From Thermoplasmatales archaeon SW_10_69_26 (GTDB lineage Archaea; Thermoplasmatota; SW-10-69-26), in assembly GCA_003009755.1 (NCBI GenBank), contig PXUB01000039.1, positions 1 to 19,336 on the forward strand: a stretch of 19,336 nucleotides of DNA, in the 5' to 3' direction. Shown in pieces: positions 1-13,155 of this stretch. The notes under the pieces were generated by a model. It was not told where the DNA came from. It worked only from the letters and a program-made list of their open reading frames with translations, and ran no database searches. A program made the position numbers and the translations under genes. How positions within the stretch are numbered: position 1 is the first letter of the stretch; every line of letters begins with the position of its first letter.

Positions 1-20
1 GGGAGGTCGTCGTTGCTCAT
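1..20 (-). CDS. 5' start of a gene running off the left edge (MSNDDL...)
   Basis: ATG at 20 in the same orientation as the element operon; only 6 full codons visible. Confidence 0.35.
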
Positions 21-106
21 GCCTGGGGATGGGGGCCTTGGCGGGAGGCGTTGTCCGCGAACGGTTCGATGTCTATTGAGAGGGCGCGTTCAGCACCCTC
101 TTGATA

Positions 107-124
107 CTCTCTCTCTCTCTCTCT
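107..124. repeat. (CT)9 dinucleotide microsatellite in an intergenic spacer
   Basis: ctctctctctctctctct read directly, between ORF 155-397 and the ATG at 20. Confidence 0.9.
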
Positions 125-154
125 TGGGTTTTTCGGAGGCTCAGCCGGGTCAGG

Positions 155-397
155 TCAGACTTGGATTTGTCCCTTGCCGGAGACGGGGTCGCCGTTGTAG
201 TCCAGGACTTCTTTGACGCTGGCCCAGCCGCCGGAGCCATAGGTGGCAAGCGTCCCGTCCCAGTTGATCTCGGCGTCCTTTCCGGGTCCGTTGAAGAGGA
301 GCTCGACGGAGTTGGGGCGGCTGCCTGTGCCTTCAAAGACGACGGTGCCGACCCGGTCGCCCCGGTAAACCAGGGGTACTTCTTCTGTGCCTGCCAT
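155..397 (-). CDS. small beta-rich hypothetical viral protein (80 aa)
   Basis: ATG preceded by GGAGGGGGT (SD-like); operon orientation; normal composition. Confidence 0.7.
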   Translation of the reverse strand: MAGTEEVPLVYRGDRVGTVVFEGTGSRPNSVELLFNGPGKDAEINWDGTLATYGSGGWASVKEVLDYNGDPVSGKGQIQV

Positions 398-433
398 ACC
401 CCCTCCAGCCTCTCTCTTGAGCTTTTCGGGGCC

Positions 434-604
434 TCAGCGGGGTGGGTCGACGGGGATGAGGGGGCCCTCGAGGGCGGTGCGGTCGGTGTAGCCGGCGCCC
501 GTCTCGTCCTCGAGCAGGAGGACTCTCCAGCCCTCTTGGACCTTGACGAACGTTCCCAGGTCGGTGCTCCAGTAGTAGCCGGGCTCGGCGTCCGAGGGAT
601 CCAT
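434..604 (-). CDS. hypothetical protein, 56 aa (MDPSDAEPGYYWSTDLGTFVKVQEGWRVLLLEDETG...), absent from the ORF track
   Basis: Manual translation from ATG 604 to TGA 434; fills the gap between the ATPase and ORF 155-397; acidic, GC3-rich codons. Confidence 0.7.
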   Translation of the reverse strand: MDPSDAEPGYYWSTDLGTFVKVQEGWRVLLLEDETGAGYTDRTALEGPLIPVDPPR

Positions 605-625
605 GCCCGACCGAGAGGCGGGCCG

Positions 626-1258
626 CTACTTAGGCGGTTGGAGCGGGAAGGGCTCGCGCCAGGTGAGGTCCCCAGCGTGGGCGTGCAAGTAGTGATGCTC
701 GGGCAGACGGTCGGCCAGATGCATCTGTGGGGTGCTGGCGATCTCGGCGAGGTCCTCGGCGTCGTCGCTGGGCAGCCGCCAGGCCAGGACGTGGTCCGCC
801 CGTCGGCAAATCTTGGGAATCTCGTTGCTGCGGTGGATCTCGACCAGTAGGCTGGTGTCCTGCTTGTGGGCGGTCCGCCACAGGGTCGACACGTTGTCCG
901 GGGTCGCCGAGGGACTGGTCCCAGGTACCGCCCGGCTAAACTCGAGCAGGACCACCGCGAGGCCGGGGGCGAGGTTTTCGAGGGCGAGGCCGGCGACGTC
1001 GTCGAGCTGGTCGTAGCCGACGTGCAGCGAGACGCAGGGAGTGTCGACGTCGGCGAGGGCGTCGAGGCTGCGGATCTGGGTCCAGCGTTGGGGCTGCATC
1101 GTGGGCGGCGGGTCGGCTGGGTCGAGCTCGCCTTCGGGGTCGTGGACGATGGCCCGGCGGTGCAGCTCAGCAAGAAAGCAAAGCCCGGTCGTTTTCCCCT
1201 GCTCGAAGTCGCCGGCGGCAAGCACCTTGTCCCCGGGCTCGAGCTGCTGGCCGGTCAT
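626..1258 (-). CDS. divergent FtsK/HerA-superfamily viral packaging ATPase-like protein (210 aa)
   Basis: Walker A GDFEQGKT; Walker-B-like VVLLE; WRTAHKQDTSLLVEIHR at the position of the GRH...Q motif of P9/A32-type ATPases; ATG 1258 overlaps the upstream stop (ATGA). Confidence 0.75.
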   Translation of the reverse strand: MTGQQLEPGDKVLAAGDFEQGKTTGLCFLAELHRRAIVHDPEGELDPADPPPTMQPQRWTQIRSLDALADVDTPCVSLHVGYDQLDDVAGLALENLAPGLAVVLLEFSRAVPGTSPSATPDNVSTLWRTAHKQDTSLLVEIHRSNEIPKICRRADHVLAWRLPSDDAEDLAEIASTPQMHLADRLPEHHYLHAHAGDLTWREPFPLQPPK

Positions 1259-1467
1259 AGCACCCCCAGGGTCTTGGCTTGGCTCAGGAGGTTCTCGAGG
1301 TCCTCGAGGCACCGACGCTCGCCGATGGGGACCGCCGCCTCTACGCTGCATCCGTCGCCGCAGGTAATGCAGGTGAGGCTTGCCAAGTGAGGAGACTGTT
1401 TGGCAGATTGGTCGGCGTAGAGATGCCCCTCGGGGCAGGTCCAGAGGCGGAGGTAGACCTCAGTCAC
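1255..1467 (-). CDS. small Zn-ribbon protein (CPEGH...CITC), 70 aa
   Basis: GTG 1467 overlaps the upstream TGA; CxxxH and CxxC pairs. Confidence 0.65.
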   Translation of the reverse strand: MTEVYLRLWTCPEGHLYADQSAKQSPHLASLTCITCGDGCSVEAAVPIGERRCLEDLENLLSQAKTLGVL

Positions 1468-1691
1468 CGGTGTTGCCCCCCGCGGCCGCGACGGCGCTGT
1501 TGGCGTTCTTTGAAGCGTTGGGCGGCGGTTTGGACGTCGCCGACGGGGAGGGTGACGCCGTAGCCGCCGCAGCATTTGACGTCGTAGACGATCATCACGC
1601 CGTCTTCTCCGCCGGCTTTGGCGTACTGGCTATCGGGTAGCGGTTCGCCGCACGTCACGCAGTGCTCGGGTTCGGGCGTCTCGTCGGTCAT
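1464..1691 (-). CDS. small Cys-rich (CVTC...KCC) hypothetical protein
   Basis: 4-nt start/stop overlaps at both ends; acidic N-terminus. Confidence 0.7.
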   Translation of the reverse strand: MTDETPEPEHCVTCGEPLPDSQYAKAGGEDGVMIVYDVKCCGGYGVTLPVGDVQTAAQRFKERQQRRRGRGGQHR

Positions 1692-2527
1692 GCTTTCAGT
1701 TGCTCCTTGAAGCGGGCTTTGCGGGCGTCGAGGTCGGCGTCGTCGGGTTCGGCATCGGGGCCGGCGTGGTCGGTGGGCGTATGGTCTTCGAGGTCGTCCT
1801 CGGTGGCGTCGTCCTGGTCTTGACGGGCGTTTTGGCGGGCTTCGAGGACGCGGGGGCCGAAGACGGCGACGGTGGTGACGGCAGCGCTCACCTCGGCGCC
1901 GTAGTGGGGGAGGTATTTGGCCACGACGGGACTCCAGGCGTCGACCAGGGCGTCTTCTTCCTGTTGGGAGAGGGGTTGGGCGCCGTGGTTCTCGAGGCGG
2001 CCGCTGACGACGCGGACGGTGCTGGTGACAAGCGGGGCGGCCTCGGCGGGATCCATCGCCGGCGGCTCGTCGTCAAGGCCGCCGCGGGAGGTCTCCTTTT
2101 CGGGGGCGGTCTCCTGGTCCTCGTCCGTGGCCTCGGGGGCATCGCGTCGGGGCTTGGGGCGGTCGTCTCCGCCGGGGAGGCTCCAGGTGGTGGCCTGGGG
2201 CTTGTCGACCTGGGCGGTGGCGGGCTCCTGGTCGCGGAGGTCCTCGAGGTTGCGTCCCCCAGCCTCGGGCCCAGGCTCGGCCTCGGCCTCGGATTCGTGC
2301 TGGGGATCGGGCTCGGTTGGGGCCTCGTCGGCGTCGGGATCGTCGGTGCTGGGGGTCCAGCCGTCGTCGGCGGCCTCGAGCTTGGTTTTGTGCTTCTCGC
2401 GGACGTGGTTGGCCATCGGACCGGCGGGGGCCTGTTTCTCACATATTTGGCATTTGTAGCGGGTTTGCCAGGGCGGGGCGTCGTCGCCCTTGTCATCGAC
2501 CCGGTTGGCGAGGTCTTTCCATCCCAT
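1688..2527 (-). CDS. C2H2 zinc-finger protein with acidic linker and a C-terminal hydrophobic segment
   Basis: CQIC-x12-H-x4-H; D/E/P-rich middle; VSAAVTTVAVFGP; start placed at ATG 2527 (2554 is an alternative). Confidence 0.75.
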   Translation of the reverse strand: MGWKDLANRVDDKGDDAPPWQTRYKCQICEKQAPAGPMANHVREKHKTKLEAADDGWTPSTDDPDADEAPTEPDPQHESEAEAEPGPEAGGRNLEDLRDQEPATAQVDKPQATTWSLPGGDDRPKPRRDAPEATDEDQETAPEKETSRGGLDDEPPAMDPAEAAPLVTSTVRVVSGRLENHGAQPLSQQEEDALVDAWSPVVAKYLPHYGAEVSAAVTTVAVFGPRVLEARQNARQDQDDATEDDLEDHTPTDHAGPDAEPDDADLDARKARFKEQLKA

Positions 2528-2560
2528 CCAGCCCAGCCATGCCAACCCAGACACAAGTAA

Positions 2561-3427
2561 CTACCCGTCTGTGAGTTCCAAGGTCGGGATTTGGCGGCGG
2601 AGTTGGCGGGCGACGGCGCGGCCCATGGCGAGGGGGACGCTGTCGCCGATGGCTGCCGCGGTGGCGGTCTTGGTCTCGGGGAAGGTCCATTTGTCGGGGT
2701 CCATCCCGTGCAGGCGGGCCATGTCATCGGTGTCCAGCCATCGGATGCTGCTCCGGTTGGCCTCGTCCCAGAGCAGGAATCCGTTGACGGATTTGCTGGT
2801 GAGGGTGTAGCCGGGTTCGTGGCCAGGCAGGACGGGCAGGCGGTTTCGGTCCCGATACGCGGCTTGTTGCTGGAAGTCGGCCATGAGGTTCTCATCGCCG
2901 GGGAGGGCTTCGGCCCAGCCGTTGATGGGTTCGAGGCGTTGGCCGTCGAGGCGGGCCTGGCCGGGGTCGCCGTGGGTCCGAGGGGGGGGGTTGTGGAGGC
3001 CTTTGAAGCCGCGTTCGCGGATCGTGTAGCCGCCGACGTCGCAGTCGCGGACCTTGGTGACGTTGTCGATGCCTTGCCAGCCGAGCATGACGTTCTCGAG
3101 CGCGGTGGCTGCGGGGTCGTAGGCGTCGACGAGGTCGAGCACCGCATCGCGGAGGCTGGTGTCGTGCTCGGCGTTGTTGTTGGCTTGGCTGTAGGTTTGG
3201 CAGGGGATGCCGCCGATGACGACGGTTTGGTTGGGGGGCGAGTAAGCGGCGAGGTCGGCGGCGTCCAGGTCGGTGACGTCGGCGACGTTGCAGGTGGCGT
3301 CGGTGTTTTGCTCGTAGCAGCTGGCCCGTTTGTCGTCGAGTTCCCAGGCGGCCATGACGTCGAAGCCTTCGAGCTCGAAGGCCCGGCCGAGGACCCCGAT
3401 ACCGCCGCACAGATCTAGGACGTTCAC
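2561..3427 (-). CDS. DNA (cytosine-5) methyltransferase, orphan in this window
   Basis: Motif I variant LDLCGGIG, motif IV GGIPCQ, motif VI ENV, motif VIII RER, motif X IGDSV; GTG 3427 with GGAGG SD, overlapping the upstream TGA. Confidence 0.9.
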   Translation of the reverse strand: MNVLDLCGGIGVLGRAFELEGFDVMAAWELDDKRASCYEQNTDATCNVADVTDLDAADLAAYSPPNQTVVIGGIPCQTYSQANNNAEHDTSLRDAVLDLVDAYDPAATALENVMLGWQGIDNVTKVRDCDVGGYTIRERGFKGLHNPPPRTHGDPGQARLDGQRLEPINGWAEALPGDENLMADFQQQAAYRDRNRLPVLPGHEPGYTLTSKSVNGFLLWDEANRSSIRWLDTDDMARLHGMDPDKWTFPETKTATAAAIGDSVPLAMGRAVARQLRRQIPTLELTDG

Positions 3428-4245
3428 AAGGGACCTCCCTCGGTCCTCGGAGTCGTCCCGTTTCCGCAGGTGGAGCAAAGCATCGCCTGGCTGGGATCGA
3501 GCTCGGCGCGGACGGCCCGGCGCTCGGACTCGGTCATCCCGCCCCAGGCCCAGAGGAGGCGGTGGGCCTGGTCGACGTCGTCGGCGAGCTCGTCCTCGAC
3601 GAGCCCCTCGAGGTTCTCGAGCCAGTCGGCGTGTTCGTCCTCGCCGGCGGCGCGGAGATCGAGGAGCTCAGCCGGGCTCCCGTAGAAGCCGCAGAAGCAG
3701 TCGCCGGAGCGGCCAAGGTCGGCCCACAGGGGGTTTTCGGGGAGGTCGTTCTCGGCGATGTGTTCGCAGACCTGGTTCTTCGTCCACTCAGCGAGGGGCG
3801 CGACCCAGGTCCAGCGGTCGGCCTCTTGGACGGGCGTCACGCGACCCATGCGGTTGCGGCTCTCCCGACGCCGGACGCCGGTCCACAGGTGGAGCCCTTC
3901 ACCCTGGCCCCGGCCGCCGACGGTGGTAGCGAGGCGTTCGAGTGGCCTCTCCTTGAGGCGACGGTAGAGGACAGGGTGGTCTCGGGGGCCGGGGAAGCCG
4001 TGCGTGGTGACGATCTCCGCGTAGCTCTCCCGCGTTCGGAGGGTCCAGAGGTGGGCGTCGAGCTCGTCGGCCAGGTCTTCGACGTATTGGCGGTTGCTCT
4101 CGAGGCCGGTGCCGGTGTCGAGGTAGACGAGGAGGCCGACGCCGTGCTCAGTGACAGCGACGTGGGCCGCGGCGGTGCTGTCCATCCCGCCGCTGACAAG
4201 GGCGACGTGGGTCTCGCCATGCGACGGCTCGGGTAGGTCAGCCAA
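3424..4245 (-). CDS. PAPS-reductase-family (PP-loop) protein
   Basis: SGGMDS PP-loop, DTG, LKERP, TGVRRRESRNR, PLAEW, SGDCFC and C-terminal CSTC. Confidence 0.88.
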   Translation of the reverse strand: MADLPEPSHGETHVALVSGGMDSTAAAHVAVTEHGVGLLVYLDTGTGLESNRQYVEDLADELDAHLWTLRTRESYAEIVTTHGFPGPRDHPVLYRRLKERPLERLATTVGGRGQGEGLHLWTGVRRRESRNRMGRVTPVQEADRWTWVAPLAEWTKNQVCEHIAENDLPENPLWADLGRSGDCFCGFYGSPAELLDLRAAGEDEHADWLENLEGLVEDELADDVDQAHRLLWAWGGMTESERRAVRAELDPSQAMLCSTCGNGTTPRTEGGPL

Positions 4246-4696
4246 GGCCGGGAGCCTCCTCGAGCTCGTCGGTGATGTCGGCGCCGGCGAGCAGGCGCCA
4301 GGTCCTCGCGAAGATGAAGCGAGCGCCGGCCTGGCTGGCGGCTTTCAAGTCGTAGAGACGGTCGCCGATGTAGACGTCGGCGCCGATCTTCGCGAGGACC
4401 TCGGCCTTCCACGCTCGAGCATCTTCGATGCCCTCCCACGGCTCCGGCTGGAAGTGGACGTCTTCGAGCGGGGGGGTATTCACGTTAGCGAGCTGGTGGG
4501 TCGTCGCACCGGCAAGCCGGGTGGTGCGGGCGGTGACGATGTGGACGTAACAGCGGTGCGCGATGCGGGATAAGAGATTCATCGACGGCCTGTGCGGTCT
4601 TGTCGAGGCCCGGACGCTGACGGGATCGGTGAAGTCGGCGTCCTCTTCTCCGGTGAACAGGGTCCCGTCGAGGTCGACGGCGAGCGTGTTCAACAC
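4238..4696 (-). CDS. HAD-superfamily phosphatase (PNK 3'-phosphatase/nucleotidase-like), 152 aa
   Basis: AVDLDGTL (motif I), VTAR (II), K (III), IGDRLYD (IV); GTG 4696 after GAGGGGG. Confidence 0.85.
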   Translation of the reverse strand: MLNTLAVDLDGTLFTGEEDADFTDPVSVRASTRPHRPSMNLLSRIAHRCYVHIVTARTTRLAGATTHQLANVNTPPLEDVHFQPEPWEGIEDARAWKAEVLAKIGADVYIGDRLYDLKAASQAGARFIFARTWRLLAGADITDELEEAPGLG

Positions 4697-4881
4697 GGAC
4701 CCCCCTCGGTGGCGTGGTCGCCGTATCGGCACCAAACGCAGAGGCGGTTGCAGAAGTACGTGTGGAGCTCGCAGCCGGGCTCGCACTCCTCGCAGGGGCA
4801 CGGGTCTTTGGGTCGGCCGCTTTCGAGGGCCACCGCCTCGTAAAGGTCGGTGACGGCCTCGCAGGAGTTCGGACGGCTCAT
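4690..4881 (-). CDS. Cys-rich small metal-binding protein (63 aa)
   Basis: CPCEEC, C/H-rich tail with CVWC; ATGA overlap and SD GAGGGAGG. Confidence 0.7.
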   Translation of the reverse strand: MSRPNSCEAVTDLYEAVALESGRPKDPCPCEECEPGCELHTYFCNRLCVWCRYGDHATEGGPC

Positions 4882-5105
4882 GTTGGCCCTCCCTCATCAG
4901 GGAGCAGGTCGCGGGGCGTGGGGCCATAGCAGCCCAGGGGTACGCGGTCGTGCCAGACCGCGCAGTCGGCGATGTAGCTTTGGATGAGGTGGCCTTGCTC
5001 GAGATCCTGGGCCTCGAGGACGTCAGGGCCGTCCAGGTCGAGGAGCAGGGCGCCGGGGTCGCCTATGGGTTCGTCTGGCATCGGGTCGTGGCTGTCGCTA
5101 TTCAT
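4878..5105 (-). CDS. small acidic hypothetical protein (75 aa)
   Basis: Overlaps the rep stop; GGAGG SD; operon continuity. Confidence 0.65.
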   Translation of the reverse strand: MNSDSHDPMPDEPIGDPGALLLDLDGPDVLEAQDLEQGHLIQSYIADCAVWHDRVPLGCYGPTPRDLLPDEGGPT

Positions 5106-6750
5106 CGTTGTCCTCCTGTCGTTTGATCTCGTGGTCGCGCATCCGCCAGCTGATCGCGTCGTGGCGGAGGCGGTCGGTGTCGGCCGCGTCGATCAGCCGG
5201 CCGCGGCGGACGCTGGGCTCGACGTCGACGGGGTCGCGGTCCTCCTCGGCGGGATCGTGGCCCAGGCTAGCCTGGGCGTCCTCGCTGGCTCCGTCCCCGA
5301 TGGCCTGCTCGCACAGGCGAGCGACGTCGGTGCGGTTGAGGCCGCCGTGCTCCTCGAGCTGCTGCCCGCAGCGGGTGCACATCTCGGCCTCCGGCAGGGT
5401 TACGTAGGTGGCCAGTCGGTCGCGGGCCCGCCATTCGAGCCCGCGCATGTTCTCCGGCGTCGGGGGGTCCAGCCCGTCGCCGCCGGCCGCCTCGTGGACC
5501 AGGGCGCTGGCTATGTCCTCGCGGACGAACGCGAGCCAGCCGGTGTCTTCGAGCTGGCCCCAGAGGTTCTCGCCGGCGTCGGGGTCGGGGACGCCGAGCT
5601 CGTCGGCGAACGCCTGCCAACCGCGGTGGCCGAGCTCGCCGTACCAGCGGCTCATCTGCCAGTTCTCCGGCGTTAGGGCCTGGACGGTCAGGACGCCGGC
5701 GGTGAACTCGTCGAGGGGGACGGTTTGGGTGTCGTGGTCGAGGTCGTCGCGGTCCTCGACGTCGAGCCGGACCCAATCCTGGCCGACGCTCAGGAGGCGC
5801 CGGTTGACGTCCTCGAGGTGGGGCCGCGTGTTGTACTTGGCTCCGTGGCTGAGTTTCGCCAGGTCCTCGCGGTCCCGGACCCACAAGGGCCGGTAGCGGA
5901 GGTTCTGGGTGCCCTCGAGGTCGCGGCCGCTCCAGTCCTCGAGGAGGTCCTTCCAGAGCTCGCGCATCTCGTCGAGCTCGCTCGTGGGCCGGTACAGCGG
6001 GCGCTGGCTGCCCGGCTCGCGCTCGAGGGCCCGCAACTCGCCGTGCTGATTACGGTAAACGGCCGGCGCCCAGACGTGCAGGTGGGGCCGGATCTGGTGG
6101 GGGAGGCTGCTGCTCGTCCGGTGGATCGAGACCCATGCCCCGACGGGCTCGCCCGGCAGGCCCATCAGCCGCCAGGCGTGCTCGAGGAAGGTCTCGCCGA
6201 GCCGGGCGAAGTCCCCGCCGCCTTCGTCCACGATCTCGCCCCAAGCCTCAGCCTCGAGCTCGGGCGGCAACGTGAGCTCGCACCGGATGAGGCCGAGCTC
6301 GCCCCCGCGGCCGCCGACGGCTTTCGCCATCCGCTTGAAACGGTCTCTGGCGGTCGATCCTCGCCCTTGGAAGGCGTTCCAGCTCCGGCCGTGGGGGTCC
6401 CAGCGGTCGCCGCTCAGGTAGGGCCGCCAGGAGGGGTCCTCGTGGCGCTCGCCGTCGCCGGCGTCGGGGCAGGAGACGGCGACGTAGCCCTCGCAGCCGC
6501 CGATCTCGTCGATTCGCTTTTCGTCGGGCAGCCGCGTGGGCAGCTCGCTGAGGACGCCGCGAGGCACGAGCTCGCCCTCGGCCTGCATCCGGTCGTAGGT
6601 GGCCAGGGCCTCCAGCCACGACATGTAGGGGGCCTTGGGCCGGCGCTGCTCCCAGTAATCGAGCACGCCGTCCACGGGAGAGGACTCGTCGGCCACGTCA
6701 TCGAGCAGCCATGCGGGGGCCCGCGCTCCGAACCGATCGGCGGCCGTCAT
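5098..6750 (-). CDS. rep: HUH rolling-circle replication initiator, IS91-transposase-like (SNJ1 RepA-type), about 550 aa
   Basis: Motif 1 ELTLP, motif 2 IH...RPHLHVW, motif 3 AKYNTRP, downstream RWYG; ATG 6750. Confidence 0.8.
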   Translation of the reverse strand: MTAADRFGARAPAWLLDDVADESSPVDGVLDYWEQRRPKAPYMSWLEALATYDRMQAEGELVPRGVLSELPTRLPDEKRIDEIGGCEGYVAVSCPDAGDGERHEDPSWRPYLSGDRWDPHGRSWNAFQGRGSTARDRFKRMAKAVGGRGGELGLIRCELTLPPELEAEAWGEIVDEGGGDFARLGETFLEHAWRLMGLPGEPVGAWVSIHRTSSSLPHQIRPHLHVWAPAVYRNQHGELRALEREPGSQRPLYRPTSELDEMRELWKDLLEDWSGRDLEGTQNLRYRPLWVRDREDLAKLSHGAKYNTRPHLEDVNRRLLSVGQDWVRLDVEDRDDLDHDTQTVPLDEFTAGVLTVQALTPENWQMSRWYGELGHRGWQAFADELGVPDPDAGENLWGQLEDTGWLAFVREDIASALVHEAAGGDGLDPPTPENMRGLEWRARDRLATYVTLPEAEMCTRCGQQLEEHGGLNRTDVARLCEQAIGDGASEDAQASLGHDPAEEDRDPVDVEPSVRRGRLIDAADTDRLRHDAISWRMRDHEIKRQEDNDE

Positions 6751-6921
6751 CTCGGCCCCCCGCAGAGACCAAATGCACACGTCTGTACATCAGGGGGTAT
6801 TTGAATGGGGGTCGGCGCCCGCGGAACCTGTCTCCCCATTCCCACCAAGGGGGAGCCGACCATACTGGGCGCGCCTCGCGGCACCCTTGGCTGGGATGGG
6901 CTGCCTGGTAGTCGGGATAAC

Positions 6922-6950
6922 CCCGCGCGGCCGCGGGGCGGCCGCGCGGG
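6922..6950. other. perfect 13-bp all-GC hairpin; candidate replication-origin or regulatory stem-loop
   Basis: cccgcgcggccgc-ggg-gcggccgcgcggg, about 170 bp upstream of rep. Confidence 0.6.
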
Positions 6951-6990
6951 TTCGGTGGTGGACTGTTGGCTCGGTGCTCGAGCCGTAGAA

Positions 6991-7069
6991 GGCCGCCGGC
7001 CGGACTCGAACCGGCGTGGCCCCCGGCTTCGGGCCAGGGGCCGGATCGGCCTGGCTACCTCACGGCGGC
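6991..7069 (-). ncRNA. tRNA-like RNA (79 nt) with a non-canonical anticodon arm
   Basis: Acceptor stem GCCGCCG/CGGCGGC; T arm GCCGG-TTCGAGT-CCGGC; U8; D-loop-like TAGCCAGGCCGA; 10-bp stem with CCGAA loop in place of the anticodon arm. Confidence 0.75.
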
Positions 7070-7189
7070 AGCGGAGGGCCACCACACGTCGTGTGTGGTG
7101 GTCTATGACCCCCGACATGTTGTGGGGGTGGTCGGTGGGCGGGCCGGCCGCCGACCTGTGGTGGGGTCGGCAGTCGGCCCGCCGGAGGC

Positions 7190-7414
7190 TCACGGTGGGG
7201 TCTCGCCTCCCTCGTCGGTCTCGATCACCAGGGCGAGCGGGGCGGTGGACGTGTCGCCGCCGCTGGCCTGACTGAGGTAGCTATCGACGGCCTCGGTCAC
7301 CCAATTCTCGGGCCCCCCGCTGACGGGGACGGGCAGCCGCCAGCGATCAGTGAGGAACCATATCTCGCCGAGCGGGGTGTGGAGGAGGGGCGTCAGGTAG
7401 GCGGTCTCGGCCAT
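7190..7414 (-). CDS. hypothetical protein (74 aa)
   Basis: TGATG coupling with the upstream ORF. Confidence 0.6.
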   Translation of the reverse strand: MAETAYLTPLLHTPLGEIWFLTDRWRLPVPVSGGPENWVTEAVDSYLSQASGGDTSTAPLALVIETDEGGETPP

Positions 7415-7716
7415 CAGGGCCGCGCCTCCCGGGGCTCGAGGATGCCGACGGTTCGGCCCTCGAGGGCGTCGGGGACGTCTTCCCGGGGGCCGTCGTCGAG
7501 CGCGAGGCGGGCGGCCTGGGCGAGGACGCGCTCGGCCCGATCCTGACGGCTCACTCGGAAGACCTTGGCGAGGCCGGGCCGGTCCGGGTCGCCGATGCCG
7601 ACCTCAGCGATGACGACCTCGCCGGCCGAGGCCATGATGCGGACCTCGACGGTGGCCGGAGCCTGGTCGCGGACCTGCTCGAGCAGCTCGCCGGCGGGCG
7701 CCGGGTCGGAGCTCAA
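7414..7716 (-). CDS. hypothetical protein (100 aa)
   Basis: TTG start overlaps the upstream TGA; alpha/beta pattern. Confidence 0.65.
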   Translation of the reverse strand: MSSDPAPAGELLEQVRDQAPATVEVRIMASAGEVVIAEVGIGDPDRPGLAKVFRVSRQDRAERVLAQAARLALDDGPREDVPDALEGRTVGILEPREARP

Positions 7717-8156
7717 GGGCGACCGCCCCCGGCGATCTTGCAGCCGAGCCGGTGGGCGTGCTCGCCGACGTCCTCGGCCTCCTGGCGGATCTCCTCGCGG
7801 AAGCTCTCGAGGGTGCCCGGCCTGACGCCATCGAGGTCGAGGGTGTCGAGGAGCTCGGTGAGCCGGTCGGCGACGTCGTGCAGGGCTCGGGCTCGGCCGC
7901 GTTGGACGGCGTGGGCGTAGGCGAGCGAATCGCTTGCCGGGTCGCCGTCGAGGCGAGCCCGCAGGTAGTCGAGTTGAGTGGAGAGACGGCGGACTTGCTC
8001 AAGAGCGAGGGCAGCCGCCTCGAGCTGCCGTTGGCGCCCGCCGCCATGGCGGCGAGCGTCACCTCGCAGCCGTGAGATGGTTGCGCCGAGGTTGTCGGGC
8101 AGTTGGTCAGAATCTGAGCGCGAGAGGTCGGGGTTGTAGGGTGTCTCGTCGTTCAT
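7713..8156 (-). CDS. helical/coiled-coil hypothetical protein (147 aa); first gene of the leftward operon
   Basis: ATG with GGAGGGT SD; heptad-like Leu pattern. Confidence 0.75.
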   Translation of the reverse strand: MNDETPYNPDLSRSDSDQLPDNLGATISRLRGDARRHGGGRQRQLEAAALALEQVRRLSTQLDYLRARLDGDPASDSLAYAHAVQRGRARALHDVADRLTELLDTLDLDGVRPGTLESFREEIRQEAEDVGEHAHRLGCKIAGGGRP

Positions 8157-8242
8157 CGGGACCCTCCAGCCTCCCCCGTTCGTGGGGGAGGGTCCGGCGG
8201 GTCCCGACCTGACTGAGGGGCTCGCGCCCGTCAGCCCCGCCC

Positions 8243-8270
8243 TACGGCGGCAGGCTTATACGGCGGAGGC
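8243..8270 (-). promoter_or_regulatory. putative TATA box (TATAAG on minus, 8255-8260) flanked by a tandem direct repeat
   Basis: tacggcggcaggc (8243-8255) and tacggcgg-aggc (8259-8270) around cttata, upstream of the operon. Confidence 0.45.
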
Positions 8271-8695
8271 AGGGGGACGCGGTGGTTCCCCGGAGGGATC
8301 CAGTTGACGACCTCGTTTCGATGACTCCGCCAGATGCTTCAAGTGGTCCCGCGAGAGAGCCATCGGTGCGAGGTGACACCGTGTACGAGTGGCTCCCCAC
8401 GTCGATCGTGATCGCCACCTTCCTCTTCGGCATCCTAGCCGAAGCCATCGAATCCGGGCGGCTCACCGCCTGGACGACCAAGGCCTAACCGATAGAGCCC
8501 TCGCCGGTGTCCCTTCCCTCACCCTTGCTCCCGCCAGCTCAGGCCAGAGCCCGGGCCGGGGACGTTGATCCCGGCATCGGTCGGATCGCGAGACCGGATC
8601 GGGCGTCGACGGCCTCGGGCGACCACCGTCGTTCGCCTGGGTGAGGGAAGACCTGCAGGAGGGGAGAGCCTCGAACCCGGATGGTCGACGGCGGG

Positions 8696-9144
8696 CTAGC
8701 GATGCTCGCGTTTCGTACGAGCGGTCCGAGGGAAGTGTGCCTTAGGCGTTTCCACTCATCGCAGGTCGGCTTGACGTGATGGGGGAGCCGACCTGCGATT
8801 TCGCACGGGCGCCCGGAACGCTGTGAGGGCGGGCGCCCGTGCTCACTGAGAACCGCCTCGGGCCAAGCGTCTCGAGGCGGACTAGCGATGCTCGCGTTTC
8901 GTACGAGCGCCCGCGGGAAGTGTGCCCTGAGCGTTTCCACTCATCGCAGGTCGGCTTGACGTGATGGGGCAGCCGACCTGCGATTTCGCACGGGCGCCCG
9001 GAACGCGGTGGGAGGGGGCGCCCGTGCTCACTGAGAACCGCCTCGGGCCAAGCGTGTCGAGGCGGTTCTCAGTCACGTACGTCCGGCCGCTGGCCGGACG
9101 TAGTGATCGACAGACGGCCGCCGTCGTGTGGCATGCCGTCTGTC
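8696..9144. repeat. hairpin array with a 186-bp tandem duplication (8696-8881 and 8882 to about 9065), each unit starting with CTAG
   Basis: Near-identical copies; back-to-back perfect stems of 14, 12, 16, 11 and 10 bp. Confidence 0.9.
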
Positions 9145-11266
9145 AATCCCGCACCAACCGGTAGTGGTCGCCGTTGTCGGGCGAGTACAGCGTGCCGCGC
9201 TGGTTCTTCAGCATCTTGATCGTGTCCTCGACCTGGTGCTCGGTGATGCCGCGCTCGGCGGCTTGGGCCACGATCACGTCGTAGGGCGCGCCGTCGGGGT
9301 TCTCCTCGCTGAGCTCCCGCACGATGTCCAGCAGGATGCGGATGCGCTCGCGCTGGCTGTGGCCGACACCGCTGGCGACCAGATCGATGTCCATGAGCCC
9401 GCTGCCGCCCCCGATCTTCCGCAACCAGTACTCGACGATGTCGATGGCTCGCTGGGCGTCCTCGAGCTCGGCCTCGTTCGACAGCCGGATGCGAGCCGAG
9501 GCCTCGGTCAACCGGACCAACGCCTCGAGCTGGCGAGGCGTCAACGGGATGCGGCCGCTGTCCTCGCCGCCTTCGCCGCGGATCTGGACGTAGTAGTCCT
9601 GCAGGTGCTCGCGCGCCTCCTCGGTGAGCACCGGGAAACACTCCCGGCGAGCGTAGGCGACGTACTTGCGCAGGAAGTCCTCGTCGACAGGCGGCTCGAC
9701 GACCTGGTTGGCCTCCTCCTGGTCGTCCTCGGTGAACAGGCCCTCCTCGTGCCGGTCACGGTACTCGCGGATCGCGCCGGCCCTGTGCACGCCCATGATG
9801 TGGTCCGCCAGCTCGCGGTCCTTCTCCTCCTCGGGGTCGTCGGTGAGCGTGAAGATCACGTCGAAGCGGCTCATCAGCGCCGGCTCCATCGTGATCTGCT
9901 CGGCCAGCGGCTGGTTCGGGTCGAAGCGGCCGAACTTCGGGTTGGCCGCGCCCAGGATCGCGCACCGGCTGCGCAGCTCCGCCTGGATGCCGGCCTTGGC
10001 GATCGAGACCGTCTGCTGCTCCATGGCCTCGTGCATCGACGACTGATCCTTGCGGTCCATCTTGTCGATCTCGTCGACCGCGCACAGGCCCTTGTCGGCG
10101 AGCACGAGCGCGCCCGCCTCCAGCGTCCATCGCCCATCGGCCAGATCGTCGCGCACGGCCGCCGCCGTCAACCCGGCCGCCGAGGACGATTTCCCGCTCG
10201 TGTACACCGAGCGGGGCGCGATCTTCTCGGCGAACCCGAGCAGCTGGGATTTCCCCACGCCCGGGTCACCGACGAGGAGCACGTGGATGTCCCCGCGGAT
10301 GCGGGACCCGTCCGGCATGCGCTTGGCGACGCCGCCGAACAGCTGCATCGCCAGCGCTTGCTTCTCCATCTCCATGCCGCGGATCGTGGGGGCCACGCTC
10401 TCCACGATCTTCTGGTAGAGGTCGGGATCGCGGGCGAACTCCATGATCTCCTCGACCTCGTCCTCGCCGATGTCCACCTCGTCGAACTCCTGCTCTTGAA
10501 CCTCGACGCTGTTGACCTCACTGTAGAGGTCGAAGAGGGTGGACGGTTGCCCGTTGATGCGGCGCTGGTCGCTGCGGAGCACCCCGTTGAGGATGATCCG
10601 ATCGCCGGGAGCGACGTCGCCCGCCAGATCCCCTTCGACGTAGGCTTCCAGCCGCTCGGGCTGCTCCCCGCCGCGCAGCCCCTCGGGAGCCTCTTGCAGC
10701 TCCAGACGCTGCGTGTCGACGTAGGTCGAGTCGCCCTCGTCGAACCGGAACTGGCTCTGCTTCTCGCACTGCTGGCAGCCTTGGGGCTCCTTGAACGTGA
10801 GATGGTCGTCCTGCTCGACGTGCTCGGTGTGGCCGCACCGCAGGCACTCGAAGGCGCCGACCTCGAGCTTTGGGCGGACCTCGCTGGCCTTCTTCACCAA
10901 CCCGCGGATCGCGACGAACCGACCCAGGTGTTCGGCCCGCAGCTGCCGGATCGGGACCAGCCAGTGCTCGGGCAGCTCGTAGACGCGCACCGTGATGTCC
11001 AACGGCTCGTCGACGGGCGTCTCCAGCCGCCGCACCGCTTCCTTGGCCGCCTCCAAGCTCTCGACGGGGTTCTCCAAGGTCGCGTCCGCCAGCTCGTCGT
11101 CGTGCTTGGCCAGCTGCCAGTACGGGACCAGCAAGGACGACTCCTCGGGGTAGGCCAACGCGACCTGATCGAGCTGGCTGCGCTGGTACGTTCGGAGGTA
11201 CTGTTCCCAGGAGCGACGGAGGGCTTCCTTCGTGAGGGTCGTGGAGACTTGGACAGGCGTGGCCAT
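9143..11266 (-). CDS. mcm: MCM replicative helicase (about 707 aa, no intein)
   Basis: C4 Zn finger CLRC/CQQC, GDPGVGKSQ, VDEIDKM, SRFD arginine finger, C-terminal winged-helix-like region. Confidence 0.97.
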   Translation of the reverse strand: MATPVQVSTTLTKEALRRSWEQYLRTYQRSQLDQVALAYPEESSLLVPYWQLAKHDDELADATLENPVESLEAAKEAVRRLETPVDEPLDITVRVYELPEHWLVPIRQLRAEHLGRFVAIRGLVKKASEVRPKLEVGAFECLRCGHTEHVEQDDHLTFKEPQGCQQCEKQSQFRFDEGDSTYVDTQRLELQEAPEGLRGGEQPERLEAYVEGDLAGDVAPGDRIILNGVLRSDQRRINGQPSTLFDLYSEVNSVEVQEQEFDEVDIGEDEVEEIMEFARDPDLYQKIVESVAPTIRGMEMEKQALAMQLFGGVAKRMPDGSRIRGDIHVLLVGDPGVGKSQLLGFAEKIAPRSVYTSGKSSSAAGLTAAAVRDDLADGRWTLEAGALVLADKGLCAVDEIDKMDRKDQSSMHEAMEQQTVSIAKAGIQAELRSRCAILGAANPKFGRFDPNQPLAEQITMEPALMSRFDVIFTLTDDPEEEKDRELADHIMGVHRAGAIREYRDRHEEGLFTEDDQEEANQVVEPPVDEDFLRKYVAYARRECFPVLTEEAREHLQDYYVQIRGEGGEDSGRIPLTPRQLEALVRLTEASARIRLSNEAELEDAQRAIDIVEYWLRKIGGGSGLMDIDLVASGVGHSQRERIRILLDIVRELSEENPDGAPYDVIVAQAAERGITEHQVEDTIKMLKNQRGTLYSPDNGDHYRLVRD

Positions 11267-11401
11267 GATCGTGCACCCCATCGCTTCCAGCGGGGACGGC
11301 CGCCATCCCGGGGCCCCTTCACCAGGTTTCTCCGGAAGCAGGGGAAAAACCACCCCGGGGGCACGCCCACCCCCCTGTTGCGAGTGGAGGGCCCAACCCT
11401 C

Positions 11402-12341
11402 TCACGCCCTATCCTGCTTCCCGCGAACGGTTCGACGGGTTTTCGGTTCTTCTGCGAGCCAGGGCAGATCCGCCCTGAGCAGGCGAAGAGGTCCCGTGCG
11501 ATGCGCCAACGTGGGGCGGTCGGTGATGAGGTCCATCAGCGAGGGATGGCTCGTGGCCCGAGCCAGCTGGCGTTGGCCGTTCACCGTCCAGACGACGATG
11601 GGTCGATCCAGCGAGAAAACGCGAGGCCGGCCTAACCGGAACAACCGGCGCTCGAGCACGAGCCTGTCCGGGTCGGCCTCCTCGACCCACCAGCGCAGCC
11701 GGCGCATGCGGCGGCGCGAGACCAGCAAGCGGTCGGCCCGGTAGGCCCAGGATCAGCCCGGTCGGGCTGGGGTTCCCGGCGTCGTCGGTGTCGCGGACGA
11801 GGTCACGGTGGACCCCGGTCACGACCGCGGCCGGGGTCTCTGCATCGTCCAGCGTCTCCAACACAGCGTCGGTCGCTTGCGGGGCCTCGATCTCGGGGTT
11901 CGCCGGTCCCCGCGAAGACGTCCTCGCCGACGGACCATCGACCCTCGCCAGCTCCTAGTCAAGCTAGACTGCCGGACGTGTTTTGCTTAAGCTCTCGCGC
12001 CGGTCTCGGCAGACCGGGCACGGTCTGCCGAGAGTACGGGCGCCAAGCCCGTGCGAATGAGCGAGGCAAGGTCGCGGAGCCCGAGGAAGGAAACCCCCTG
12101 TGGGTTTTCTCGGTCCCCGAGCTCGGACGAGGAGGTCTGCGAGACGGGGAGTCCGGCCAGCGTCCGGTCGCGGGGAAGAATCGGGATGCCATCGGCCGTC
12201 GAGCGAGGGTCGAGATCGACCGCGTCCGCCAGAGGCGAACGCGGCTTCGACGCTCTCGATCGTGTGCTCGTGGTCGACGACCGGGGCTAAACCGCGATGG
12301 GAGACGACCGGCGGCCGGGTGGCCGGCCACCCCTCCCCCAT
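11402..12341 (-). pseudogene. glycerophosphodiester phosphodiesterase (GDPD/GlpQ/UgpQ family) pseudogene, frameshifted and interrupted
   Basis: Fragments in different frames and correct order: VVSHRG..EHTIES, DAVDLDPRSTADGIPIL, EIEAP..AVVTG, VWTVN...LITDRP. Confidence 0.85.
11964..12109. mobile_element. one-ended copy of the CTAG MITE-like element inside the GDPD pseudogene
   Basis: Near-identical to 12826-12918 apart from an extra two-hairpin segment of about 50 bp. Confidence 0.8.
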
Positions 12342-12782: not shown

Positions 12783-12825
12783 ACCCTGCGCTAGAAGCTC
12801 TTCCCAAGTAAGGGCTTGCGTCCTG

Positions 12826-13155
12826 CTAGACTGCCGGACGTGTTTTGCTTAAGCTCTCGCGCCGGTCTGAGCGAGGTAAGGTCGCGGAGCCCGAGGAAGG
12901 AAACCCCTGTGGGTTTTCGACGGATGCTGGGTGGCCAGGAAATGTTCACCAAATCGAGGGGGAGCGGTCTCCGTGACCCCCCTCACGGCGGGGCCGCCCT
13001 CAGGCGGCGACGACGCAGGTTCCCCATGTCCGCGGGTTGTAAGCGTTGTCGCCGTCGACATCGAAGTAGCCTCCGGCTACTCCTTCGTCTCGGCTCCGCG
13101 CTTTCACCGCCTGAGGCCGAGCGAGAGCTGAACCCAAGCATCGCCGGCAGTCTAG
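12826..13155. mobile_element. MITE-like element, 322 bp between two CTAG sites, with long imperfect terminal inverted repeats
   Basis: CTAG-actgccgg...ccggcagt-CTAG; about 95 bp of end similarity; no credible ORF; right CTAG contains the stop codon of the next gene. Confidence 0.8.

Follow-up and report, generated by a model that had tools for sequence, protein, structure and literature searches.

The window analysed here is the initial 19,336-nt portion of contig C39 (54.7 kb) of genome G000 (2.8 Mb, 95% complete). DNA from position 1 to about 9146 had no match in any of five family relatives, and the MCM, FKBP and TatC genes, together with the genes rightward of them, matched the five relatives at 66-79% DNA identity. 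The MCM gene (9143-11353) is the only one in the genome, and in one of the relatives, G001, the neighbours of MCM have their counterparts at the start of a different G000 contig, C49. These two observations identify the left part of the window, from 1 to about 9146, as a strain-specific island. Its right limit falls between ~8160 and 9146 and its left limit lies beyond the contig end. The island encodes a 5mC methyltransferase, a PAPS-reductase-like gene, a HAD/PNK-like gene, orphan ORFs and a 550-aa protein to which we refer as rep. The tRNA-like element studied here had been described in the original prediction as element-encoded, and its position in DNA lacking from five family relatives supports that description. 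The features that concern us are the following:

1-9146, no strand: the G000-specific island, recognised from the lack of a DNA match in five of five family relatives and from its Pfam gene content.
5098-6750, minus strand: rep, an orphan protein of 550 aa with HUH-type motifs, starting at an ATG at 6750, with a GC3 of 0.93.
6798-6806, minus strand: a TATA-like sequence, ATTCAAATA, 52 nt before the rep ATG.
6922-6950, minus strand: a perfect 13-bp hairpin, CCCGCGCGGCCGC-CCC-GCGGCCGCGCGGG, lying after the tRNA-like element and before rep; a related strain keeps it.
6991-7069, minus strand: the tRNA-like element of 79 nt, recognised from its sequence, an ARAGORN call, a drawn structure and a tRNA-Arg D-arm signature; RF00005 is silent on it.
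7079-7101, minus strand: a 9-bp hairpin, CCACCACAC-ACGAC-GTGTGGTGG, directly upstream of the element in a stretch conserved in related strains.
7190-8156, minus strand: ORF147, ORF100 and ORF74 (147, 100 and 74 aa), co-oriented and overlapping in the ORF list, with a GC3 of 0.80-0.92.

No known family was matched by ORF147, ORF100 or ORF74, although their GC3 resembles that of coding sequence. The tRNA-like element lies 120 nt past this operon of small ORFs, within a hairpin-rich, non-coding stretch of 440 nt, and all flanking genes have the same orientation. It precedes rep, as predicted, but not directly, as 240 nt separate it from the rep ATG. The sequence at 6798-6806, which we take to be TATA-like by the archaeal consensus, is a possible promoter of rep's own.

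Repeated sequences were observed elsewhere in the window. MITE-like repeats lie on either side of the FKBP gene (11964-12109 and 12822-13155); dozens of copies with 74-99% identity occur in the genome, many of them at contig ends. Two tandem units of ~185 bp (8690-9065; 94-97% identical) fill the space from a small membrane ORF to the 3' end of MCM. Positions 1-99 are an exact inverted copy of 54643-54741 at the opposite end of the same contig and are 92% like an end of contig C4; the assembly breaks within this repeat. A small membrane ORF (VYEW.P.SIV...) is found at 8380-8488 on the plus strand and at about 70-190 of C49, with ~75% DNA identity over 85 nt. It occurs once in G001, beside MCM, and the two copies in G000 may mark both sides of the island. 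The MCM gene of G001 (G001:C89:2478-5606) contains, relative to that of the window, an insertion of ~1.5 kb, possibly an intein, and has an open frame of at least 1003 aa.

The rep protein had no Pfam, PHROG or NCBIfam match. It contains the motifs ELTLP and HLHVW (with invariant H223 and H225) and an invariant Tyr, and its family has an invariant CxxC near the C-terminus. The ESM Atlas gave Rep_1 clusters at 0.95-0.97 and, by structure, the IS91 Y2_Tnp (TM 0.49/0.69). One relative, P0005, gave a weak Y2_Tnp match (E=0.011, below the cut-off), and the AF2 model of rep was poor (pLDDT 41). The motifs and the Atlas leads make rep plausibly an HUH enzyme, either a rolling-circle Rep (Rep_1, PF01446) or an IS91-like Y2 enzyme (PF04986). 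The identity first proposed for this gene stands to that extent, but no Pfam match exceeded the threshold, and the label rep is reasonable but unproven. The family is very small: one search returned five proteins, and another gave 10 representatives among 1.84 billion; the relatives of the window's protein are four (P0003-P0006). Searches by tblastn with the protein and with alignment A1 recovered no loci of these relatives from the genome, viral and metagenome collections, and tblastn of rep against plasmids and phages gave no match.

Read on the minus strand, 6991-7069 reproduces exactly the predicted sequence, including its perfect acceptor stem and T arm. Positions 7063-7069 pair with 6992-6998 in the acceptor stem (7/7 Watson-Crick), the discriminator is C (6991), and the T arm at 6999-7015, GCCGG-TTCGAGT-CCGGC, has a stem of 5/5 Watson-Crick pairs. 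The D region, of the GTGAGGTAGCCAGGCCGATCC type, occupies 7043-7062. In the place of the anticodon arm, 7018-7042 form a 10-bp stem with one T.G wobble and a 5-nt loop, CCGAA, and the linker AC (7016-7017) between this hairpin and the T stem is the entire variable region of 2 nt. The long stem, short loop, missing U33 and vestigial variable region of the original prediction were thus all recovered. The elbow nucleotides are intact, namely the equivalents of U8, A14, G18-G19 and A21 and the T-loop TTCGAGT. The element therefore has the 7-bp acceptor stem, the 5-bp T stem and the TTCRANY kind of T-loop found in a canonical tRNA; it does not have an anticodon stem of 5 bp closed by a loop of 7 nt, U33, a readable anticodon, a variable region that is 4-5 nt or long, or a D stem of 3-4 bp.

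ARAGORN placed a tRNA at exactly 6991-7069 with a D stem of two G-C pairs and labelled it tRNA-Ser(CGA). The label needs the closing C-G pair of the hairpin to be opened, which gives a 7-nt loop, CCCGAAG, with C33. Since ARAGORN outputs Ser(CGA), the statement that the element has no decodable anticodon is a judgement and not the output of a program. At the gathering score (29 bits for RF00005; the tRNA-Sec cut-off is 47 bits) Rfam reported nothing on the element. At E<=10 on 351 nt, tRNA-Sec alone was displayed, at 17.1 bits (E=0.85), overlapping matches of clan CL00001 being merged. Across the whole genome, RF00005 at E<=1 found 41 host tRNAs with 42.9-73.5 bits, and the element was not among them.

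Mobile elements often carry tRNAs, and this, with the ARAGORN call, would fit a working tRNA, be it the Ser(CGA) of the label or an unusual Arg decoder. A tRNA-Ser of this kind would, however, have no long variable arm, C33 for U33, a 5-nt loop and a two-pair D stem, and would be passed over by RF00005, and the host has a normal 88-nt tRNA-Ser(CGA). A decoy for tRNA-targeting defences, one of the roles originally offered, is made unlikely by the loss of the anticodon loop, the usual target of such toxins. A working tRNA or a decoy is highly improbable on this evidence.

ARAGORN by itself is weak evidence here, as about 12 of its calls in this genome (69% G+C) are plainly false. Another of its calls in the window, a 'tRNA-???' at 7126-7222 on the plus strand that overlaps the end of ORF74 and hairpins, has a 2-nt anticodon and was dismissed as a GC-rich false positive. 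A genome scan for shapes with a T arm and a 7/7 acceptor stem, G-U pairs allowed, returned 53, of which about seven (at least 99 nt long) were unexplained, approximately the chance expectation of several such shapes per genome. The folding z-score of the element against shuffles was -2.6. Its cloverleaf-like fold (-46.5 kcal/mol) is not that of minimum energy and accounts for ~22% of the ensemble. What settles that the element is more than a chance shape is its sequence ancestry, in the T arm and 3' acceptor strand and in the D arm.

The D arm of the element, GTGAGGTAGCCAGG..ATCC, is an archaeal tRNA-Arg signature and agrees with the D arm expected of tRNA-Arg, GTGAGGTAGCCNGG..ATCC. The pattern TGAGGTANCCNGG..ATC..GGTTCRANTCC matched 52 metagenome stretches, which ARAGORN called as tRNA-Arg (TCG, GCG or CCG) in 46 cases and as tRNA-Pro in one; five received no call, two of which end at a contig end. 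In an alignment with four tRNA-Arg genes, GTGAGGTA was invariant. The top 5 bp of the long hairpin (CTGGC/GCCGG) correspond to the anticodon stem of Arg(TCG) (CCGGC/GCCGG; CYGGC). The T arm and 3' acceptor strand, 25 nt, are identical to those of a tRNA-Asn from a distant genome of the phylum. When a covariance model of the element was run on 151 phylum genomes, 18 of the best canonical matches were checked and proved to be Pro (10), Arg (6), Leu (1) and Glu (1).

Compared with archaeal tRNA-Arg (TCG/GCG/CCG), the element shares the D arm GTGAGGTAGCC(A/T)GG..ATCC, the anticodon stem CYGGC/GCCGG and the T loop. It differs in that the partner of A10 is G and not U, the D loop is 2 nt longer, and the discriminator is C, whereas the tRNA-Arg sequences examined mostly have G. 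About 5 bp (GGCCC/GGGCC) are inserted below the anticodon stem, where nucleotide 26 and the variable loop would stand; 2 nt of the latter are left. The 7-nt Arg loop CTTCGGA is replaced by the 5-nt CCGAA, which has neither U33 nor an NCG anticodon. The identity nucleotides of ArgRS are C35 and G36/U36, and neither NCG nor YCU in a 7-nt loop is present. Both the derivation of the element from tRNA-Arg and its inability to decode are well supported. The proposal of a tRNA shape with an archaeal D loop and no normal decoder is upheld, and the D arm can now be assigned to tRNA-Arg.

Had the host genome contained a nearly identical normal tRNA or a duplicated att sequence, the element would have been taken for a recent remnant. 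Both were looked for and neither was found. The genome holds the element once and contains no parent tRNA for it; the longest match elsewhere, 19 nt, is to the T arm of tRNA-Phe. The host tRNA-Phe was rejected as the parent because it shares that arm only. Five host tRNA-Arg genes were reported by both ARAGORN and RF00005. A tRNA of the selenocysteine or pyrrolysine type was rejected on scores and anticodon. An archaeal tRNA with an intron was also rejected: a bulge-helix-bulge has two 3-nt bulges with a 4-bp helix between them, surrounding an insertion that lies within the anticodon loop or close to it, and the 10-bp stem has no bulge. The element is ~5 nt longer than a normal tRNA. The intron mode of ARAGORN, the output of which is mostly spurious in this genome, added nothing for the element, and an in-silico deletion series on it gave no consistent isotype.

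A further observation concerns the host tRNA-Phe gene. An integrase-like ORF (59113-59667 of contig C19, minus strand) lies 121 nt downstream of it, and copies of the 3' part of tRNA-Phe, 14-18 nt long, occur at 72370-72742 of the same contig. The region (58919-72742) is probably a separate integrated element of ~13.7 kb.

The tRNA-like element is most likely a pseudo-tRNA. We give a probability of about 0.5 to the reading that it is a copy of an archaeal tRNA-Arg that has been remodelled, lies in a strain-specific mobile island, does not decode and is cleavable if transcribed. A tRNA-Arg that was borne by the mobile element or captured by it would have had its anticodon arm remade in one or a few events that create palindromes, such that the 5-bp Arg stem kept a 5-nt loop and the new pairs absorbed position 26 and the variable loop. 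With the anticodon arm rebuilt, the RNA can neither be charged via the anticodon nor read codons. The minihelix of acceptor and T arm plus the elbow is all that RNase P, tRNase Z and the CCA-adding enzyme require, so excision by RNase P and tRNase Z, in the manner of a t-element, would be expected if the region is transcribed. Transcription from the upstream ORF147-ORF100-ORF74 unit would expose the element to such cutting, and the module may benefit the mobile element.

The original prediction had taken the intact stems as an argument for selection. All 12 acceptor and T-stem pairs and the elbow are intact and the rest is heavily altered, which counts against a mere relic, and selection on the top half would also yield this pattern. 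The argument is weakened by the replacement of this stretch in related strains (see below) and by the report that perfect hairpins can arise by template switching, a palindrome-making mutation, without selection (PMC8794818). One or a few such mutations could account for the changed arm. If few independent events were involved, it is no statistical surprise that the acceptor and T stems were left untouched, and perfect stems need not mean selection.

The closest parallels are t-elements, defined as non-canonical cloverleaves that keep the T arm and acceptor stem (PMC1920247), a shape that the element has. In Haloferax, RNase P and tRNase Z cleave such t-elements (PMC4326828; PMC3296008). In plant mitochondria the T arm is conserved, and RNase Z cuts after the 74-nt t-element of Arabidopsis cox1 to give an mRNA 5' end at -241 (PMC1920247). 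Like the t-element upstream of 5S rRNA in Haloferax volcanii and those of plant mitochondria, the element has a kept acceptor and T arm and adjoins a gene as a non-coding, potentially RNA-forming unit. It differs from them in being known here from DNA sequence alone, in lying on a mobile island and not in a core operon, in having a 10-bp hairpin instead of the anticodon arm, and in not being retained in near relatives.

The mimic might, in line with the main idea of the original prediction, be kept by selection because RNase P and tRNase Z cut there, setting the 3' end of the ORF147-ORF100-ORF74 transcript and/or the 5' end of the rep leader, or freeing a stable small RNA. We consider this somewhat unlikely. 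It would account for the intact top half and elbow and for an orientation shared with all flanking genes, the single T.G pair fitting this strand only, and it has the archaeal and organellar precedents given above (PMC4326828; PMC3296008; PMC1920247). The TATA-like box of rep, however, lies downstream of the element. As rep has such a box of its own, the cutting of a polycistronic transcript in front of rep, as first suggested, is not needed. A distant rep homologue in G001 also has no tRNA-like element upstream.

Comparison with closely related strains, from four halite-metagenome DNA runs of another study, bears on the same question. Contigs of these strains are collinear with the window over 6372-6678, 6893-6945 and 7076-7295 at ~90% identity, and span parts of 7190-8156; run X3 had no contig over 6671-7162. 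In a related strain the 130 nt from 6946 to 7075, which hold the element, are replaced by 76 letters that could not be aligned at >=80% identity. The X2 (838 nt) and X4 (153 nt) contigs align from 7076 upward, and the contig of a second strain departs at 7076 too; over 6893-6945 the X2 contig has seven differences. Closely related strains therefore retain the neighbouring hairpins and, at >=80% identity, not the tRNA-like element, which argues against its being selected as a processing site and suggests that the module is dispensable. The 76 replacing letters may themselves form a different tRNA-like module.

Among 21 genomes of the class, the model of the element found one clear relative, at 3282-3382 of contig C202 in genome G003, a member of the same archaeal family (49.7 bits). 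It agrees with the window's element in its D arm, T arm and short variable region (3 nt), has a hairpin in place of the anticodon loop, is called by neither ARAGORN nor RF00005, and adjoins foreign-looking DNA. It differs in its length of 101 nt, in its irregular central hairpin of 34-36 nt, and in having unrelated flanking genes and no rep nearby. When 29 nt were removed from it in silico, ARAGORN called a tRNA-Arg(CCG) with C33, and the G003 element may be an interrupted tRNA-Arg. Around it, positions 3000-4500 of that contig form a 1.5-kb islet of low GC content (54-61%), in which a 284-aa orphan ORF ends 10 nt before the tRNA-like gene and a stretch of masked N stands beside it.

The elements of the window and of G003 differ by four double-sided changes, three in the acceptor stem and one in the lower anticodon stem, but 41 of 500 shuffles matched that count. 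The two could also come from different tRNA-Arg genes. The shared architecture and the paired changes, which would favour a selected processing site, hint at a maintained class. Against a selected processing site, the matches listed from the 151 phylum genomes included no more members of the anticodon-less class. Pattern scans of viral sequences for the element returned a jumbo-phage tRNA-Leu only, or nothing. Taken further, the mobile DNA of this halite-dwelling family would carry a maintained class of anticodon-less tRNA-Arg mimics, represented by 6991-7069 of the window and by the G003 element. Selection would preserve their acceptor stem, T arm and elbow, either because RNase P and tRNase Z cut them as a module that shapes the transcripts of the mobile element or because the neighbouring HUH enzyme recognises them as a hairpin. 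The central arm could then vary freely or be exchanged from strain to strain. We put this forward tentatively and regard it as rather doubtful.

Recombination could have produced such a sequence in another way. The mobile element or a predecessor may have entered or left a tRNA-Arg gene and taken most of it along, the hybrid then being reshaped. Archaeal integrating elements usually target tRNA genes, and IS91-like enzymes can capture flanking DNA. The same genome offers a case at tRNA-Phe, where an integrase-like ORF adjoins the gene and repeats of its 3' end lie ~13.7 kb away, and the G003 copy borders the low-GC islet. Like the tRNA-gene att sites and pseudogenes of integrating elements, the element is tRNA-derived sequence within mobile DNA; unlike them, it has no direct repeat or adjacent integrase, and both acceptor strands are present. 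The 5' strand, perfectly paired here, is not needed in an att copy of a 3' half. No second copy of any part of the element longer than 19 nt exists in the genome, and no att direct repeat was found there, the left border of the island being beyond the contig end. There is no integrase among the window ORFs scanned, and the three PF00589 matches of the genome are on contigs C1, C2 and C19. The element also lies inside the island, ~1.1 to 2.1 kb from its right limit, and both its flanks are collinear in the related strain. A scar of this kind is accordingly an unlikely origin, and we retain the remodelled pseudo-tRNA as the preferred reading.

A role at the level of DNA appears more improbable. 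The element would be part of a cruciform or single-strand hairpin cluster of a rolling-circle origin, as a single-strand origin or a site recognised by the HUH enzyme, and its T-loop-like hairpin would expose GTTC. The 440-nt stretch packed with hairpins does stand beside an HUH gene, and the element folds on the rep-sense strand, the strand usually displaced in rolling-circle replication. Its minimum-energy fold is rod-like on both strands (-49.8 kcal/mol on its own and -46.8 kcal/mol on the other). The hairpins conserved in relatives, however, are the neighbours and not the tRNA-like element; no nick-site motif was identified; and descent from tRNA-Arg explains the sequence without an origin. 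A replication primer, also among the roles first suggested, gained no support, as no reverse transcriptase or primase was found among the ORFs scanned.

New here are the tRNA-Arg origin, the ~5 extra base pairs and the 5-nt loop. If the element is a relic only, it calls for caution in annotation, since the tRNA-Ser(CGA) label of ARAGORN would inflate the tRNA count of this metagenome-assembled genome. Should selection maintain its top half, this would be the first case of a t-element-like module linked to a mobile element of archaea, and also to an HUH Rep family that is rare and unclassified. It would then also be a natural example of the release of RNA between RNase P and tRNase Z sites, an arrangement that Haloferax workers now build artificially (PMC4326828).
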